Shown: one piece after another, positions 39,342 through 46,123 of the stretch
Position numbering within the stretch: position 1 is the first letter of the stretch
Layout of the letters: the number at the start of each line of letters is the position of its first letter
Assembly: GCA_016861085.1 (NCBI GenBank)
Contig: BOKR01000001.1
Coordinates: forward strand, 896,153 to 960,152
DNA: 64,000 bases
Reading direction: 5' to 3'
From: Patescibacteria group bacterium
Lineage (GTDB): Bacteria; Patescibacteriota; Microgenomatia; UBA1400; PJMF01
The notes under the pieces: generated by a model
Told to the model about the DNA's origin: nothing
Seen by the model: only the letters and a program-made list of their open reading frames with translations
Databases searched by the model: none
Program-made: the position numbers and the translations under genes

Positions 39342-40817
39342 CTACTCCTCGTCTTCATCCTCAACTTTGTATGCAACCAAAACGTCACCAACCCTAAAAT
39401 CGAGTTTTTTGTTTTTGAAAGTCATCCCAAATTCGTTCTTAGCTTTGACCTCAGTAATTTCTTCCTTGCCATGCATCAAACGCTTTGGAGTTGGATCCAT
39501 AACGATTTCTTCATCTCGTTTTAGATGAAATCTATCATTCTTCTTGATTTCCCCTGTTTTGACTCTACAACCAGCAATCTTTTCGCCATTCATCTCGAAA
39601 ATCTGCATAATTTCGGCCTCACCAAGTACAACTTCATCAATGGTTGGTTCCATGAGCCTAAGCATCTGTTTTTGCAAATCTTCAATTAATTTATAGATGA
39701 CATCATACGATTTGATTTTAATACCAGCATCTTTTGCTAAACGTTTAATTTTTCCTGGAACCTTGTTGTGAAATGAAATAATAAATGCACCACTTGAGGT
39801 GGCCATATCAACATCTTGTTCAGTCACTTCACCTACACCAGAGGAAATGAGGTTTGTGCTTTCATCATCAATAACTTGCAAAATTGCTTCTAGAGTTCCT
39901 TCAACGTCAGCCTTGATAATGATATTAAGTTTTGGTTTGTCTACATCACCAACTAACTGTGAAAAATCAATATCACCCCATGGATTTGTTGGAGCTTCTT
40001 CTTCAACCAGAGCTTCAACTTCTGGATATTTTGCAGCCGCATCATACACTTTAGAGCCAACAGCTGGAACATCTTTAAAACCGATAATTTCAGCTGCGAA
40101 CCCTGGTTTGACTGCTTGCAAACTTTCTCCAGTTGCTGAAGTTAATAATTTTACTCTTCCTTCAGTTGTGTCAGTATAAATATCTTGTCTTGGAGCGAGT
40201 GTGCCTTGCTTGACAATAACGGTTGCCACAATGCCACGCTTACTCTCTTTTGAAGATTCTATTACCACCGCTTCAAGAGGCGCCTGAGGGTCTGCTTTGA
40301 GTTCTAGTAACTCAGCCATAACTGCAATTGTCTCCAAAAGTTTGTCAACATTTTTCCCAGTTTTAGCCGAGATTTCGACTGCCTCAATATCTCCACCATA
40401 ATCTGTAACAACAAGTCCATGCTCTGCAAGACCTGACTTGGCGATATCAAGATTTACATCTGCCAAATCAATTTTATTGATTGCAATAACAACAGGGACG
40501 TTTGCAATCTTAATGTGACGAATTGACTCAATCGTCTGAGGTTTCACACCATCATTGGCAGCAACAACTAAAATAACGATATCTGTAATCTTAGAGCCAC
40601 GTTCTCGCATCTTGTTAAATGCAGCGTGACCTGGAGTATCAATAAATGTAATATCTTTTCCGTTGTGCTGAATACTGTATGCACCAATATGCTGTGTAAT
40701 ACCGCCAGCTTCACGGGCAGTTACATTGGTATGGCGAATGTAATCCAATAGGGTCGTTTTACCGTGGTCAACATGGCCCATAATCGTAATAATTGGTGGT
40801 CGAGTTTGTAGTGCCAT
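39342..40817 (-). CDS. infB: Translation initiation factor IF-2 (short form lacking the N-terminal extension)
   Basis: G-domain GHVDHGKTTLLD, DTPGH and NKID, plus the C-terminal beta-barrel domains. Only 491 aa. Confidence 0.9.
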   Translation of the reverse strand: MALQTRPPIITIMGHVDHGKTTLLDYIRHTNVTAREAGGITQHIGAYSIQHNGKDITFIDTPGHAAFNKMRERGSKITDIVILVVAANDGVKPQTIESIRHIKIANVPVVIAINKIDLADVNLDIAKSGLAEHGLVVTDYGGDIEAVEISAKTGKNVDKLLETIAVMAELLELKADPQAPLEAVVIESSKESKRGIVATVIVKQGTLAPRQDIYTDTTEGRVKLLTSATGESLQAVKPGFAAEIIGFKDVPAVGSKVYDAAAKYPEVEALVEEEAPTNPWGDIDFSQLVGDVDKPKLNIIIKADVEGTLEAILQVIDDESTNLISSGVGEVTEQDVDMATSSGAFIISFHNKVPGKIKRLAKDAGIKIKSYDVIYKLIEDLQKQMLRLMEPTIDEVVLGEAEIMQIFEMNGEKIAGCRVKTGEIKKNDRFHLKRDEEIVMDPTPKRLMHGKEEITEVKAKNEFGMTFKNKKLDFRVGDVLVAYKVEDEDEE

Positions 40818-42262: not shown

Positions 42263-42916
42263 TTAAATGCGCTTTTTTGCCAAGACACAATAATAGTCTC
42301 TTGAATCTTTCCAAAACTTTATTTTTATGAAGTTTGCTAAGTCAGAAAACAACAACTTTTTATTATAAATAAAATGTATAAGTCCTGTTTCGTCACCAAT
42401 CGTTGGTACATATGTATTTTCGGCAATCTTATCTGCTGTTTTGACTAAACAATATCTTACTTTTCCTTTAGAATATCTGCCACAAACTGTAATAAACAAA
42501 AAACCACCAGGTTTGAGAATCCTGTGAATCTCTGCAAGTGTCTTTTGAATTTGTTCTCTTTTATTATGTTGCAACACCTGGATACTAATAATCGCATCGA
42601 ATGAATTTTCAGCATATGGTAAAGACTTATAAATATCTCCAAGTGTCACTGTTAATTTAACCTTTTCTTTTTTTGCTTGATCTTTTGCAACCAATAAACC
42701 TTCTTCAGCGTTATCCATACCCCAAACTGAGAATCCCTCCTTAGCCAAAAAAAGTGCATTTCTGCCTGCGCCACATCCTAAATCGAGAATGTTTTTAGCT
42801 CCGTTCTCCTTGAAAAAGGTACTTAACCATGCCATATCTTCGTGAGGCTCAAGTATATCGTAGTAACTATATTTTTTTATTTTATTTTTATAAATCTTAT
42901 TCCATGCTGTGTTCAT
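42263..42916 (-). CDS. Class I SAM-dependent methyltransferase
   Basis: Motif I ILDLGCGAGRNALFLAKEG and motif II/post-I (VWGMDNAE…). Confidence 0.8.
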   Translation of the reverse strand: MNTAWNKIYKNKIKKYSYYDILEPHEDMAWLSTFFKENGAKNILDLGCGAGRNALFLAKEGFSVWGMDNAEEGLLVAKDQAKKEKVKLTVTLGDIYKSLPYAENSFDAIISIQVLQHNKREQIQKTLAEIHRILKPGGFLFITVCGRYSKGKVRYCLVKTADKIAENTYVPTIGDETGLIHFIYNKKLLFSDLANFIKIKFWKDSRDYYCVLAKKRI

Positions 42917-42950
42917 ATGTATATTATACGCCCCTTTTCCTGTCTTAAAC

Positions 42951-42990
42951 CAAAAAAAGCCGCAGGTTCATGAGTTCATGACCTGCGGCT
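42951..42990 (-). terminator. Strong rho-independent terminator closing the GC-rich operon
   Basis: A perfect 10-bp stem agccgcaggt/acctgcggct with a palindromic loop tcatgagttcatga. The A7 run on + is a U7 run after the stem on the minus transcript. Confidence 0.7.
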
Positions 42991-43024
42991 TACCACAGTA
43001 ACATCATTGGTCTTCGAAACTTCG

Positions 43025-44182
43025 CTATTGCATCTGAGTACGGAACTCACGAGCATTTTGAGCCATGCTTAATGGCCGAGCAAAATTTCGATCACCTCCT
43101 AACTGAATATTCACATGAATTAGGCTGAGTTTTCTTTCAGCTAACGCATGCGTAACTGCCCAACTTAACTTCTGAGCAGAATTGACTTGATAAACGGACT
43201 GGTAACCCATCAAAGCCGCGGTTTGAACGAAATGGGCCGACTGAGAAATTGAAGGCTCTTCAGAACAAGAGCCGTACGCACCGTTGTCAATGACGACATG
43301 CACCAGGTTGTTTGGACCATGGTGCCCGATGCTAACCAAGTTGCCGAAGTTTGTCAGGCAACTTGAATCGCCTTCAACTACTATGATCTGCTTTTCAGGC
43401 CGGGACACCGCAAAGCCCATTCCAATTGCGCTGGTAAGGCCGAAGCCGCCAGCATTGTAGAACTGATTTTGCGAATGGTGTCGGGCAAACAGCGAGCGAC
43501 TGATCAAACCCGTTGAAGAAATTAAGCCAACTTGCGCGGGTACTACTTGCCAGACGGCGCTCAAAGCTTCTTCTCGTAACAGCGTAGCATCGGGTTGGCG
43601 AAGGTCAACGATTTGGCCTGGAGCTTTGGTTTCGACTGAAGCAGACGTTGACACCTCTCCAGCAATTCCTTTGCTTTGTGTCCAGCCACGCTTTACCAAG
43701 ATCACTCCCGGTTTCTGCGTTGCTGACATTCCAGTTAGGCACTCACCGTACAAAGTTTCAGCATTGCTTTCAGCCAACACGCCATGCCACATACCGTACG
43801 CATTCAGCAACGGGATTGTTGCCGCACCTGTTGCGAAATGCTGAGGAGCTGTTTCGCCTTCAGCCCCGCGGTAGGTCACCAAAAACGGGATATCCATACC
43901 GCATGGAATGAGTAACGAGCCAATGTCATTGGATGCTACTAACATCCCGCTATTTTGCATGTAGACCAACGGTTTCTTTCCCGCCAGCCACATGCCTGCC
44001 GCGATACCAACTGCTTCCCGCTCATTAAGGCCAGGAGTGTGTAAAGGCATTTGCGACAATTGGTGGATAAAATGGCGTAACACCCCGCAGGGGACGCCTG
44101 TTGAGCAATCAATTCGGGATGCCCAACTTTGGATGAACCATTTGACTGGCCCATCTTGGACAATTTTGGTAAGGTCGTTCAT
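43025..44182 (-). CDS. ThDP-dependent decarboxylase of the phosphonopyruvate/sulfopyruvate decarboxylase (Ppd/ComDE) family, fused alpha+beta
   Basis: Pyr-domain block EREAVGIAAGMWLAGKKPLVYMQNSGMLVASN and PP-domain block VVEGDSSCLTNFGNLVSIG…VIDNGAYGS (GDG-x24-NN-like ThDP motif). GC is ~50%, against ~39% in the flanks. Confidence 0.7.
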   Translation of the reverse strand: MNDLTKIVQDGPVKWFIQSWASRIDCSTGVPCGVLRHFIHQLSQMPLHTPGLNEREAVGIAAGMWLAGKKPLVYMQNSGMLVASNDIGSLLIPCGMDIPFLVTYRGAEGETAPQHFATGAATIPLLNAYGMWHGVLAESNAETLYGECLTGMSATQKPGVILVKRGWTQSKGIAGEVSTSASVETKAPGQIVDLRQPDATLLREEALSAVWQVVPAQVGLISSTGLISRSLFARHHSQNQFYNAGGFGLTSAIGMGFAVSRPEKQIIVVEGDSSCLTNFGNLVSIGHHGPNNLVHVVIDNGAYGSCSEEPSISQSAHFVQTAALMGYQSVYQVNSAQKLSWAVTHALAERKLSLIHVNIQLGGDRNFARPLSMAQNAREFRTQMQ

Positions 44183-44191
44183 GGTTCACCT

Positions 44192-45259
44192 TTAGATTGG
44201 GTTATTGATCTTCACTCCAGCGTACTCACTGTACCAGGGGCTACGATAGTTGTCATAACCCAACGGCCGCAGTGTGGGACTGAAAATGCCTTCGACAATT
44301 TGACGCGCTTGCAGGTAATAATCCAGTGAATGCGCGTCTTGATGACGCAGTGCCACTTGATGTGGCTGATATACCTGCATGAGGTTAATCAGCGGATGCC
44401 GCGTTAAAACAGGCAGAAATTCACGAAAATGGGTGTCAATCGCAGGCAACCCATCAAGACCCAGGATATAGAGCATCGAGGTATTGAGCCCCTTTGCTTT
44501 CGCATGTCCCAGGATATCAATGTGTTGTTGCAACGAAACGCCTGACTTCCGACGCTTCATCAGCATTTCCCGGCGCTCGAAGCACTCAACGGTCTGGTAT
44601 AAGCTGAATTTGCCAGCTTCGGCTAATTGGTCCACAGCTTCAGTTGTTCTGATCTGTGAGCCAATGTACCGAATTTCTCCGGCAAAACCGAACTCGCCAA
44701 AAACCTTTTGCACCATGAGCAGATGTTGCAAACAGAGTTCATCTGTCCGAAAGCAACCGGTAACAACACCTATGCTTTCCATCTCGATATAGCTCTTGAC
44801 TAACCCTTCACGCAAAAACCCTTCTGCCGCCTTGCGAAGGTTCTCTTCCAAAAGAAGATTACTGAATTCTTCTGGAATTAACGAAAACGTTCCACAAAAC
44901 TTGCAACCGCGGCAACTGCTTCTGCTGTTAGAGTTGAGCGTCATTGCCCGGCCACTGTTTCTGATGTAAGTCTCAGAACAGGTATCCGGATGAATCGGAC
45001 TCGCACTTCCAATCAACTCGCCGCTCAGCCACACTTGTTCACCGTCATGGTGGAAAGGTGACTCTGGGTCAATTGTCAACGCAAAGAAAAAAGGCCAGTT
45101 GTGAATCGCGGGCACCAACCGAAACCGCCCACGACTCGTAATTGAGGTGTCAAACCCAGATGTTCCCATCAGGTTCAGACCCATCATTAAAACATCTACC
45201 AATGGCACATTGTGCCGACGAGCGTACACTTCAGCTTCTTGGATTGTTTGGAAAAACAT
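44192..45259 (-). CDS. Cys-motif protein, putative non-canonical radical-SAM/Fe-S enzyme (CX2CX2C)
   Basis: SSCRGCKFCGTF (confirmed in the DNA: tgc cgc ggt tgc aag ttt tgt). A downstream ILGLDGLPAID segment resembles the radical-SAM G(I/L)xxGxPGE element and additional Cys are present (GCFRTDELC). GC-rich like its neighbours. Confidence 0.4.
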   Translation of the reverse strand: MFFQTIQEAEVYARRHNVPLVDVLMMGLNLMGTSGFDTSITSRGRFRLVPAIHNWPFFFALTIDPESPFHHDGEQVWLSGELIGSASPIHPDTCSETYIRNSGRAMTLNSNSRSSCRGCKFCGTFSLIPEEFSNLLLEENLRKAAEGFLREGLVKSYIEMESIGVVTGCFRTDELCLQHLLMVQKVFGEFGFAGEIRYIGSQIRTTEAVDQLAEAGKFSLYQTVECFERREMLMKRRKSGVSLQQHIDILGHAKAKGLNTSMLYILGLDGLPAIDTHFREFLPVLTRHPLINLMQVYQPHQVALRHQDAHSLDYYLQARQIVEGIFSPTLRPLGYDNYRSPWYSEYAGVKINNPI

Positions 45260-45273
45260 GTTGCACCTTTGCT

Positions 45274-45843
45274 CTACTGAGCCAGAATAATTTTGCCTTC
45301 TAGCAATAGGATTTCAAGCGCTTCCTCGAGGACACGCTTATACGATTTTTCGTGGTCAAAGCCAAACTCGAGAGCTTGACTCAGATATTGCTGCAACCGT
45401 GGTTGAGTAACGACTCTTCCACAGTTACAATCCAATAAGATTTGGGCAATCAGAACTGTTTTACCAGTCCTGTTTGCTCCAGCACTGCAATGTATGTAAG
45501 TCGGGCCTTCGAGGCCAATTACCGTCTGGGCAGCAACAATGAATGAAGAAGCACTTTGCACTTCTAAGTCATAATGACGCATTCCTGCAGGTAACTGACT
45601 TCTAAGAAGTGCCAACTTCCTCGGCTCTTCCCCATACTTTGAATGTAGAGTCACTACGGTTTTCAAACCGAGTTTATTCCCCATTCTATTCAGTTGTTCT
45701 GCATTTGGCCAGGAGCCTCGATATAGAGTATCATTTACCATCCCAAAATTTCTGGGGAATTGGCCGCTAGAATCAGATCTCTGGCCGCTTGGTTCTAATA
45801 CTTGGATTGAGACTCCACCGATAAGAAACTCTACTGTTTTCAT
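45274..45843 (-). CDS. Protein-tyrosine/dual-specificity phosphatase-like protein (CX5R)
   Basis: P-loop IHCSAGANRTGK (HCxxGxxR[ST]) preceded by an aspartate-containing loop, at 189 aa. Confidence 0.65.
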   Translation of the reverse strand: MKTVEFLIGGVSIQVLEPSGQRSDSSGQFPRNFGMVNDTLYRGSWPNAEQLNRMGNKLGLKTVVTLHSKYGEEPRKLALLRSQLPAGMRHYDLEVQSASSFIVAAQTVIGLEGPTYIHCSAGANRTGKTVLIAQILLDCNCGRVVTQPRLQQYLSQALEFGFDHEKSYKRVLEEALEILLLEGKIILAQ

Positions 45844-45998
45844 AGTTTTACCTCTGTCTCCTCTGGAGGAGGAAAAGTTTCTTCAACAACACCATCCTCG
45901 AAGACTATTATTTTGTCTTCTTCTGGACCAGGTATTGTGTAAGAAATAAGTAGAGAAATCAACAAAAAAACAATCATTAAGGGGTCATTAAGGTTCAT
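45840..45998 (-). CDS. Small hydrophobic peptide (52 aa) translationally coupled to the phosphatase gene
   Basis: MNLNDPLMIVFLLISLLISYTIPGPEEDKIIVFEDGVVEETFPPPEETEVKL. One TM helix and an acidic tail. Its stop overlaps the next start in an ATGA arrangement. It is below the ORF-track size cutoff. Confidence 0.3.
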   Translation of the reverse strand: MNLNDPLMIVFLLISLLISYTIPGPEEDKIIVFEDGVVEETFPPPEETEVKL

Positions 45999-46123
45999 AG
46001 TTCTCACCTTCAACTAAGTTTTCAATTAGGATGTTAAAGAGCAATACATACTTAATATGTATTACCAACCTATAATTATATAACTAAGTACCTTAATTGC
46101 AAGTGAACAGTCTGGAAAATCAG

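Follow-up and report, generated by a model that had tools for sequence, protein, structure and literature searches.

What function is served by a block of GC-rich, tightly packed genes that places a phosphonopyruvate decarboxylase (Ppd)-like enzyme beside a radical S-adenosylmethionine (SAM)-like protein, and how far does this block extend? The question was raised by a 64,000-nt stretch of contig BOKR01000001.1 (positions 896,153 to 960,152; assembly GCA_016861085.1) from a Patescibacteria group bacterium, hereafter the window, in which a first interpretation made from the letters alone (the sequence-only reading) had described a transferred, self-contained four-gene operon. The present analysis points to a five-gene cassette with a radical-SAM gene and a thiamine pyrophosphate (TPP) enzyme gene at its core, and the balance of evidence tilts toward a horizontally mobile small-molecule biosynthetic cassette, the end product of which would be a small methylated metabolite.

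Linkage of the radical-SAM and TPP genes

The cassette lies on the minus strand of the window and comprises, in gene order, a small open reading frame (ORF; 45840–46013), a Cys-based phosphatase of the protein tyrosine phosphatase (PTP)/dual-specificity phosphatase fold (189 aa; 45274–45843), a radical-SAM-fold protein (355 aa; 44192–45259), a TPP-dependent 2-oxoacid decarboxylase with fused PYR and PP domains (385 aa; 43025–44182), an internal terminator, and a class I SAM-dependent, TehB-like methyltransferase (217 aa; 42263–42916). To place these genes in a wider setting, the ORFs of 58 non-redundant loci with a homologue of the 355-aa protein were surveyed, the taxon names of which are those given in the record titles. 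A TPP-family gene was located no more than 150 nt from the radical-SAM gene in 50 of the 58 loci and no more than 3 kb away in 57, and the two genes often overlapped by 17–35 nt. The sequence-only reading, which had staked itself beforehand on these genes recurring together elsewhere, thus passed its own test strongly.

The TPP partner was Ppd-like in 27 loci, the titles of which mostly named DPANN or candidate phyla radiation (CPR) taxa, and phosphoketolase-like in 31 loci of Firmicutes and Treponema as well as on plasmids. Type A loci, to which the window belongs, were titled Nanoarchaeota, Woesearchaeota, Parvarchaeota, Saccharibacteria, Jorgensenbacteria, Falkowbacteria, and others, and contained the radical-SAM gene, a fused or split Ppd-like decarboxylase, a TehB-like methyltransferase, and a phosphoesterase (PTP, one of two HAD types, or a metallophosphoesterase). 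Type B loci were found in gut Firmicutes/Bacilli, Christensenella, Sellimonas intestinalis BR72, and Treponema lecithinolyticum ATCC 700332, and contained the radical-SAM gene, a shortened phosphoketolase-family protein scoring under the NCBIfam cut-offs, PHP phosphoesterases, GrpB, HAD, and a LysR regulator, with a protein of ~150 aa, a GGDEF-like protein, or a UvrD helicase as occasional extras. A phosphoesterase was present in 28 of the 33 loci having at least 4 kb on either side, recurring by non-homologous replacement among PTP, two HAD types, metallophosphoesterase, and PHP. Moreover, the identities of the radical-SAM, TPP, and methyltransferase proteins co-varied (Pearson r = 0.67–0.83).

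A further family of ~200 aa ('u233') accompanied type A cassettes in 10 loci (L002:9229-9948; homologues in L014, L018, L022, L026, L028, L029, L031, and L042). The three invariant residues, a Cys (GSCSxKH), a His, and an Asp (TWD), are reminiscent of a transglutaminase/papain-like triad; the family had no Pfam or PDB sequence match and was not found in the window.

The radical-SAM protein and its cysteine spacing

The 355-aa protein had first been described as radical-SAM-like on account of a CX2CX2C triad, and profile searches alone left this assignment in doubt: PF04055 scored 21.9 bits, under the gathering threshold of 29.5 (17–41 bits among relatives), no NCBIfam model matched, and the family profile retrieved nothing exceeding noise from the PDB sequences. 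Structure prediction upheld it. An AlphaFold2 model built from 22 homologues (predicted local distance difference test 90.4; predicted template modelling score 0.89) displayed the partial (beta/alpha)6 TIM-barrel core of the Radical SAM superfamily, and its Foldseek neighbours were all radical-SAM enzymes, namely LipA (E = 2.5e-7), SkfB, AprD4, MqnE, LAM, viperin, and BioB. The triad C116-x2-C119-x2-C122 sits in the loop that follows the first strand of the barrel and was invariant in the alignment of the A1 subset, as were C94, C169, and six Arg residues.

The window protein does not carry the canonical CX3CX2C motif. An exhaustive profile search recovered 352 clusters at 50% identity, and among 185 sequences inspected, 134 had CX2CX2C and 14 had CX3CX2C at the equivalent place, the latter including close members (P0177 and P0197) as well as remoter relatives. 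Since both spacings occur at one place within the family, the loop evidently tolerates either, and by sequence CX2CX2C is a radical-SAM loop shortened by one residue rather than a site of another kind. The literature searches turned up no account of radical-SAM enzymes with this spacing.

Compared with the group of LipA, BioB, HydG, ThiH, NosL, PylB, and MqnE, the first Cys of the 355-aa protein is one residue closer, 'TGCF' occupies the usual place of the GGE motif, and an extra N-terminal domain of ~100 aa with invariant RGRF and DTC is present. The Pfam scan revealed no B12 domain, and neither the Pfam scan nor the predicted model contained a SPASM/twitch domain or a recognition element (RRE) for ribosomally synthesized and post-translationally modified peptides (RiPPs). 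A RiPP pathway was ruled out on the lack of SPASM and RRE domains and on the small ORF being conserved no further than the closest relative, L067. A distantly related radical-SAM domain was also found together with a methyltransferase domain in a protein of 1443 aa (P0293).

The phosphatase and the methyltransferase

The 189-aa protein had been proposed as a CX5R phosphatase, which was borne out by a match to PF03162 (Y_phosphatase2; 31.7 bits, gathering threshold 27) and an intact HCX5R(S/T) P-loop (HCSAGANRTG). Its PDB sequence matches were TpbA and Siw14, and no NCBIfam model matched it. PTP orthologues were identified in L009, L014, L019, L023, and L067, and HAD or metallophosphoesterase proteins substitute for it in other loci.

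The 217-aa methyltransferase matched PF13649 (85.5 bits) and harbored the SAM-binding motif GCGAG. The NCBIfam equivalogs for TehB gave 49–70 bits against cut-offs of 219–303, which leaves generic class I membership alone. It was present in 21 of the 23 informative type A loci with 42–57% identity to the window copy, and in three tandem copies in L018 and L066. Orthology of the methyltransferases across cassette types was considered and rejected, the resemblance being confined to the class I fold.

Extent and mobility of the cassette

The compositional shift on which the transfer claim had been based is real. The 1-kb windows across 43–46 kb had GC contents of 0.499, 0.484, and 0.443, compared with 0.31–0.45 elsewhere and a background mean of 0.385 (standard deviation 0.025; maximum 0.46), and 500-nt windows within the island reached 0.52. 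The genes between 43025 and 45843 had GC contents of 0.44–0.50 and GC contents at third codon positions (GC3) of 0.39–0.52 (TPP gene 0.495, radical-SAM gene 0.517, PTP gene 0.389), compared with GC3 of 0.21–0.30 in the genes for IF2, NusA, DnaJ, DnaK, DUF6580, and DUF4430; the small ORF (0.31) and the methyltransferase gene (0.28) were host-like. The tight packing also held, with gaps of 14 nt between the PTP and radical-SAM genes and 9 nt between the radical-SAM and TPP genes, and an ATGA overlap that couples the small ORF to the start of the PTP gene.

The boundary, by contrast, had been drawn too early. The intrinsic terminator said to close the operon (42950–42991, minus strand) is a strong hairpin of 15 pairs with one bulge, followed by a run of seven T (−25 kcal/mol, z = −5.8; none of 200 shuffles folded equally well), which was not picked up by the consensus terminator scan. 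It lies between the TPP and methyltransferase genes, and its stem CCGCAGG/CCTGCGG and T-run are kept in L067 and L009, with the inner stem varying. Just beyond it, a TATAAT (42923–42928, minus strand) is located 6 nt 5' of the methyltransferase ATG (42914–42916), and GTATAAT with the downstream ATG is invariant across the window, L067, and L009. Because the stem, the T-run, and GTATAAT are conserved in all three copies, the terminator is internal to the unit and does not mark its end, and the methyltransferase past it, conserved as noted above in type A loci, is a separately transcribed yet physically linked cassette member. The arrangement suggests that its transcript may be leaderless or carry a very short leader, beginning just past the internal terminator. 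The description as a self-contained four-gene operon therefore failed, and the unit comprises five genes.

The membership of the small ORF is uncertain. It encodes 57 aa from a TTG start or 52 aa from the ATG at 45998, with one transmembrane helix and an acidic tail, and had no NCBIfam match. The small membrane peptide listed in the sequence-only reading is thus present in the window, but a recognizable counterpart, of 45 aa and likewise with an ATGA overlap, is limited to L067, none being found in L009 or the remaining loci surveyed.

The closest relatives by radical-SAM identity were L067 (84%) and L009 (70%), in which the PTP, radical-SAM, TPP, and methyltransferase genes occur in identical order and in contexts unrelated to that of the window, which is a dnaK-dnaJ / nusA-infB setting. 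All three copies combine GC-rich PTP, radical-SAM, and TPP genes with an AT-rich methyltransferase gene, and regulatory DNA is conserved along with the cassette in the three contexts; most other type A loci match the GC content of their flanks. Horizontal mobility of the cassette is likely because one cassette occurs in three contexts and relatives are carried on plasmids. The claim of a transferred module is accordingly retained as to the compositional island and its probable mobility, but not as to its size.

No convincing direct repeats or att-like sites were found flanking the island. An 18-nt inverted repeat with 94% complementarity (42282–42299/45902–45919) is located close to both cassette ends, within the 3' end of the methyltransferase gene and the small ORF, and could have arisen by chance in AT-rich DNA. 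A tyrosine recombinase gene of the XerC/D or phage-integrase family lies beside two divergent tRNA-Met genes (61611–62477/63028–63322), ~16 kb from the cassette.

A candidate biosynthetic pathway

The cassette enzymes look active, judging from the predicted radical-SAM fold, the TPP motif and activating Glu of the decarboxylase, the HCX5R loop, and the GCGAG motif. In the pathway favored here, the core would be an obligate radical-SAM/TPP pair with the TPP gene translationally coupled. The CX2CX2C triad would hold a SAM-binding [4Fe-4S] cluster, and the radical-SAM substrate would be anionic, most likely phosphorylated, because the six Arg are invariant. The TPP enzyme would cleave a C–C bond adjacent to a carbonyl, and by analogy with phosphonopyruvate and sulfopyruvate, that of the window would decarboxylate a 2-oxoacid whose C3 bears an anionic group; the class I methyltransferase would methylate the product and the phosphatase would take off the phosphate handle, yielding a small methylated metabolite. 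The fold assignments, motifs, gene linkage, and mobility are observations of the present study, and the step order, the nature of the substrate, and the sharing of one pathway by all enzymes are inferred. The best-supported reading is a mobile biosynthetic cassette with an invariant radical-SAM/TPP core, around which methylation and dephosphorylation recur through enzymes that are not orthologous between cassettes.

The surroundings of the pair in cultured bacteria also speak for biosynthesis. Thirty Clostridium perfringens plasmids carry the radical-SAM family, and in the one examined (pCPCPI53k-r1_2) the pair is set amid genes for an ABC-2 exporter, BtrH_N, adenylating enzymes, an acyl carrier protein, HAD, PHP, and a methyltransferase. 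The pair also lies alongside an ABC-2 exporter in Treponema and amid enolase-like, creatininase, PhyH, Sua5, and APH genes in Streptomyces, and the loci of Streptomyces, Nocardia farcinica pNF1, and Mycobacterium intracellulare plasmids contain enolase-superfamily, HAD, GGDEF, phosphoketolase, and methyltransferase genes, sometimes with further tailoring genes. Such exporter, adenylating, and nonribosomal peptide synthetase (NRPS)-like genes constitute a biosynthetic context.

Known pathways follow a similar logic. In the fosfomycin (Fom1-Fom2-Fom3-FomD), oxetanocin (OxsB/OxsA), and polyoxin/nikkomycin (PolH/PolJ) systems, a radical-SAM step acts on a substrate with a phosphate or nucleotide handle, which is later taken off by a dedicated phosphoesterase; the fosfomycin pathway includes a Ppd, and Fom3 and OxsB are cobalamin-dependent, whereas the 355-aa protein has no B12 domain. 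To our knowledge, this radical-SAM family occurs in none of these systems, nor does its coupling to a TPP enzyme.

Several points weigh against a biosynthetic role. No member has a known substrate, product, or activity, and the window cassette is without a transporter, a regulator, or an enzyme that makes a 2-oxoacid. The methyltransferases of the different cassette types are non-orthologous, so methylation may be a tailoring step rather than part of the core, and the TPP clade includes a protein, P0133, that lacks a radical-SAM neighbor. In addition, the PanS-like diadenylate cyclases (DAC), GGDEF proteins, and nearby helicase or CRISPR genes of some relatives would fit signalling or defence equally well.

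The same pair also admits a bolder and rather unlikely proposal, namely that the radical-SAM and TPP enzymes form a complex performing a radical-TPP chemistry not yet known in nature. In one version, a SAM-derived radical (e.g., 5'-deoxyadenosyl) would combine with a TPP-bound enamine (Breslow) intermediate to form a C–C bond; with a Ppd-like partner the intermediate would arise from a 3-phospho(no)-2-oxoacid, and with a phosphoketolase-like partner from a ketose phosphate. In the other version, a C–P or C–S compound would be made without phosphoenolpyruvate (PEP) mutase. Either version would account for the linkage of the radical-SAM gene to a TPP enzyme of whichever family.

No paper on the radical-SAM/TPP pairing was found, in line with the initial remark that the combination is not a described pathway, and the published phosphonate inventory, which is centered on PEP mutase, does not cover it. 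As far as could be found, the cassette is previously undescribed; it is assembled from known superfamilies, and the chance of new chemistry is modest. A radical-SAM family with an undescribed Cys spacing, locked genetically to TPP enzymes in archaea and bacteria, points to an unexplored type of enzyme partnership. The makers of the metabolite would be DPANN and CPR organisms, going by the labels of most type A records, which have very few biosynthetic genes, together with gut Firmicutes, Treponema, and plasmid-bearing C. perfringens and actinomycetes, and the cultured carriers (Sellimonas intestinalis BR72, Treponema lecithinolyticum ATCC 700332, C. perfringens, Nocardia farcinica IFM 10152, and Streptomyces) render the pathway directly testable.

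Nucleotide-related genes in cassette relatives

Among the alternatives to a biosynthetic cassette, one that is unlikely but draws on several accessory genes is a nucleotide-modifying or signalling module, possibly serving anti-phage defence or inter-microbial conflict, in which the radical-SAM enzyme would have a nucleotide as its substrate, like viperin (a structural neighbor of the model), MoaA, and OxsB, and the modified nucleotide would be processed by the remaining enzymes. In eight loci, a protein of ~150 aa beside the radical-SAM gene was a close homologue of PanS (PDB 37jy; E = 5e-26) with the HDGFH and G-x-R motifs common to both. PanS-like genes were located at L025:10157-11257, L028:2613-3728, and L042:2289-2738, with small genes in L004, L005, L035, L037, L045, L050, and L055, and in L025 and L028 (both titled Saccharibacteria) the PanS-like DAC domain is fused to the methyltransferase. 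In Panoptoo, an anti-phage guard system, PanS serves as the minimal diadenylate cyclase (bioRxiv 10.64898/2026.08.10.743927). The partners of its relatives here are radical-SAM, TPP, and methyltransferase genes, not the S2TM-beta effector of Panoptoo, and the pair of PanS and PanE that characterizes this system was not found.

Further genes point in the same direction. GGDEF/Cas10-palm proteins occurred in seven loci and on the Nocardia and Mycobacterium plasmids, UvrD helicases were near the cassette in nine loci, the PHP proteins resemble nucleoside-bisphosphate phosphatases, the Nocardia cluster contains a nucleoside hydrolase and pyrF, and in P0172, P0182, and P0184 the radical-SAM domain is preceded by a fused GrpB (nucleotidyltransferase-fold) domain; the patchy, mobile distribution of the cassette would also suit a defence role. 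These GrpB fusions, GGDEF, PHP, nucleoside hydrolase, and PanS-like genes, all of them in relatives and none in the window, suggest that a nucleotide could be the substrate, and the PanS-like cyclases in particular that the cassette could be tied to nucleotide signalling.

The window itself offers little for such a module, its cassette having neither cyclase nor effector, and no PanS homologue was present in the region surveyed (34–54 kb). PADLOC-DB v2 left the radical-SAM, TPP, and PTP proteins unmatched and assigned the methyltransferase domain to the generic mad2 alone, and the radical-SAM family had no match in the phage record collection. Moreover, the LysR/GntR regulators, exporters, and NRPS-like genes of other loci indicate metabolism, and we know of no precedent for a TPP-dependent decarboxylase or ketolase in nucleotide immune signalling.

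The TPP enzyme and phosphonate biosynthesis

The decarboxylase had been taken for a Ppd/ComDE-type enzyme catalyzing the committed step of phosphonate or sulfonate biosynthesis. Family membership in the broad sense was supported: PF02775 scored 51 bits (gathering threshold 21.9), the best NCBIfam match, at full length, was the Ppd model TIGR03297, and the best PDB sequence matches were RhiE and RhiF (RhiEF, 9iz3), the split Ppd of rhizocticin biosynthesis, with which the GDSS...DNG TPP/Mg motif and the activating Glu ('NEREAVG') align. The two-domain (PYR and PP) TPP fold and the length are shared with Ppd/Fom2/AepY, RhiEF, and ComDE, and the 385-aa clade occurs in both fused and split forms, as do Ppd on the one hand and RhiEF and ComDE on the other.

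Equivalence was not. TIGR03297 gave 244.2 bits against a cut-off of 312.5, and the ComDE models TIGR03845 and TIGR03846 gave 70.5 and 109.9 bits, about half of their cut-offs (147.95 for alpha and 221.5 for beta). The homologue search returned ~105 proteins at 38–94% identity (233–828 bits), followed by a sharp fall to 26–31%. Seven clade members (the window protein and six homologues) scored 216–300 bits on the Ppd model, compared with 320–425 bits in the distant group at 26–31% identity, which hence consists of canonical Ppds. The sub-cut-off scores and the identity gap together place the 385-aa protein in a clade sister to Ppd/ComDE, and not among the equivalogs of either.

An ordinary phosphonate pathway of the 2-aminoethylphosphonate (AEP) type, possibly N-methylated, or a sulfonate/coenzyme M-type pathway, in which another part of the genome encodes the PEP mutase or ComA–C and the 385-aa protein is a divergent Ppd/ComDE, would agree with the TIGR03297 match and with the name 'phosphonopyruvate decarboxylase' that several sources give to clade members. 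AEP undergoes N-trimethylation, which the three tandem methyltransferases of L018 and L066 recall. The absence of PEP mutase, ComA/B/C, and aminotransferase reported initially was confirmed: none was found in the eight Pfam-annotated neighborhoods, none of ten window ORFs of suitable size had a Pfam match to PEP mutase, and the PEP-mutase motif EDK..PK was absent from the whole window and all locus ORFs, these searches being confined to the window and the loci. In the annotated loci the clade nearly always adjoins the radical-SAM gene and never ComA–C or PEP mutase, the supplier of phosphonopyruvate, unlike Ppd and ComDE, and about half of the radical-SAM family is instead partnered with a phosphoketolase-like enzyme. 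The AEP pathway, furthermore, has no role for a radical-SAM enzyme or a phosphate phosphatase, and the HAD proteins, tried as phosphonatases, were ruled out as generic HAD-IA members that fail the phosphonatase models and have no PhnX match. The clade separation, the absence of PEP mutase, and the phosphoketolase-like replacement weaken the phosphonate or sulfonate reading, which now appears quite improbable; the proposed committed step is a lead rather than a finding.

One clade member, P0133 (L065:10001-11143; 299 bits on the Ppd model), from a metagenome-assembled genome of Desulfobacteraceae, has no radical-SAM gene within 10 kb, and an anti-Pycsar-like metallo-beta-lactamase protein and a UvrD helicase are encoded in the same stretch.

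Finally, it is very improbable that the radical-SAM protein is an activase- or anSME-like maturase that post-translationally modifies its partner TPP enzyme with no shared small-molecule pathway. Adjacency and translational coupling are strict whichever the TPP family, and the top structural neighbor, lipoyl synthase, uses a protein-bound substrate. Against this, the protein has no SPASM/twitch or RiPP-recognition domain, the Ppd-like and phosphoketolase-like partners share scant sequence in which a modification site could be common to both, and a maturase would not explain why a methyltransferase and a phosphatase recur. A small anionic ligand is also what the N-terminal domain, rich in invariant Arg, suggests.

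Promoter-like site and conserved leader

Upstream of the small ORF, both elements described initially were recovered. The promoter-like TTGCAA-N16-TATAAT is located at 46075–46102 on the minus strand and agrees with 10 of 12 consensus positions; L067 keeps both hexamers and their spacing, and L009 keeps TATAAT. A promoter scan over the window returned 13 such matches against 9.8 expected, so that a single match is not above chance. The hairpin (46040–46066; −11.1 kcal/mol, z = −3.8) is followed by a TTTAACATCCTAA box, the two forming a conserved leader (46020–46066, minus strand) by fold energy and by conservation in L067 and L009. This leader is present in L067 (5680–5730) and L009 (3070–3125), where the hairpin has changes in both arms and the TTTAACATCCTAA box is near-invariant. 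An Rfam scan of the whole window at gathering thresholds detected nothing beyond two tRNAs. The conserved leader could be either a cis-regulatory RNA element or a protein operator.

Elsewhere in the window, infB (39342–40817) encodes an IF-2 of only 491 aa; its shortness and the low GC content together suggest a reduced-genome bacterium.

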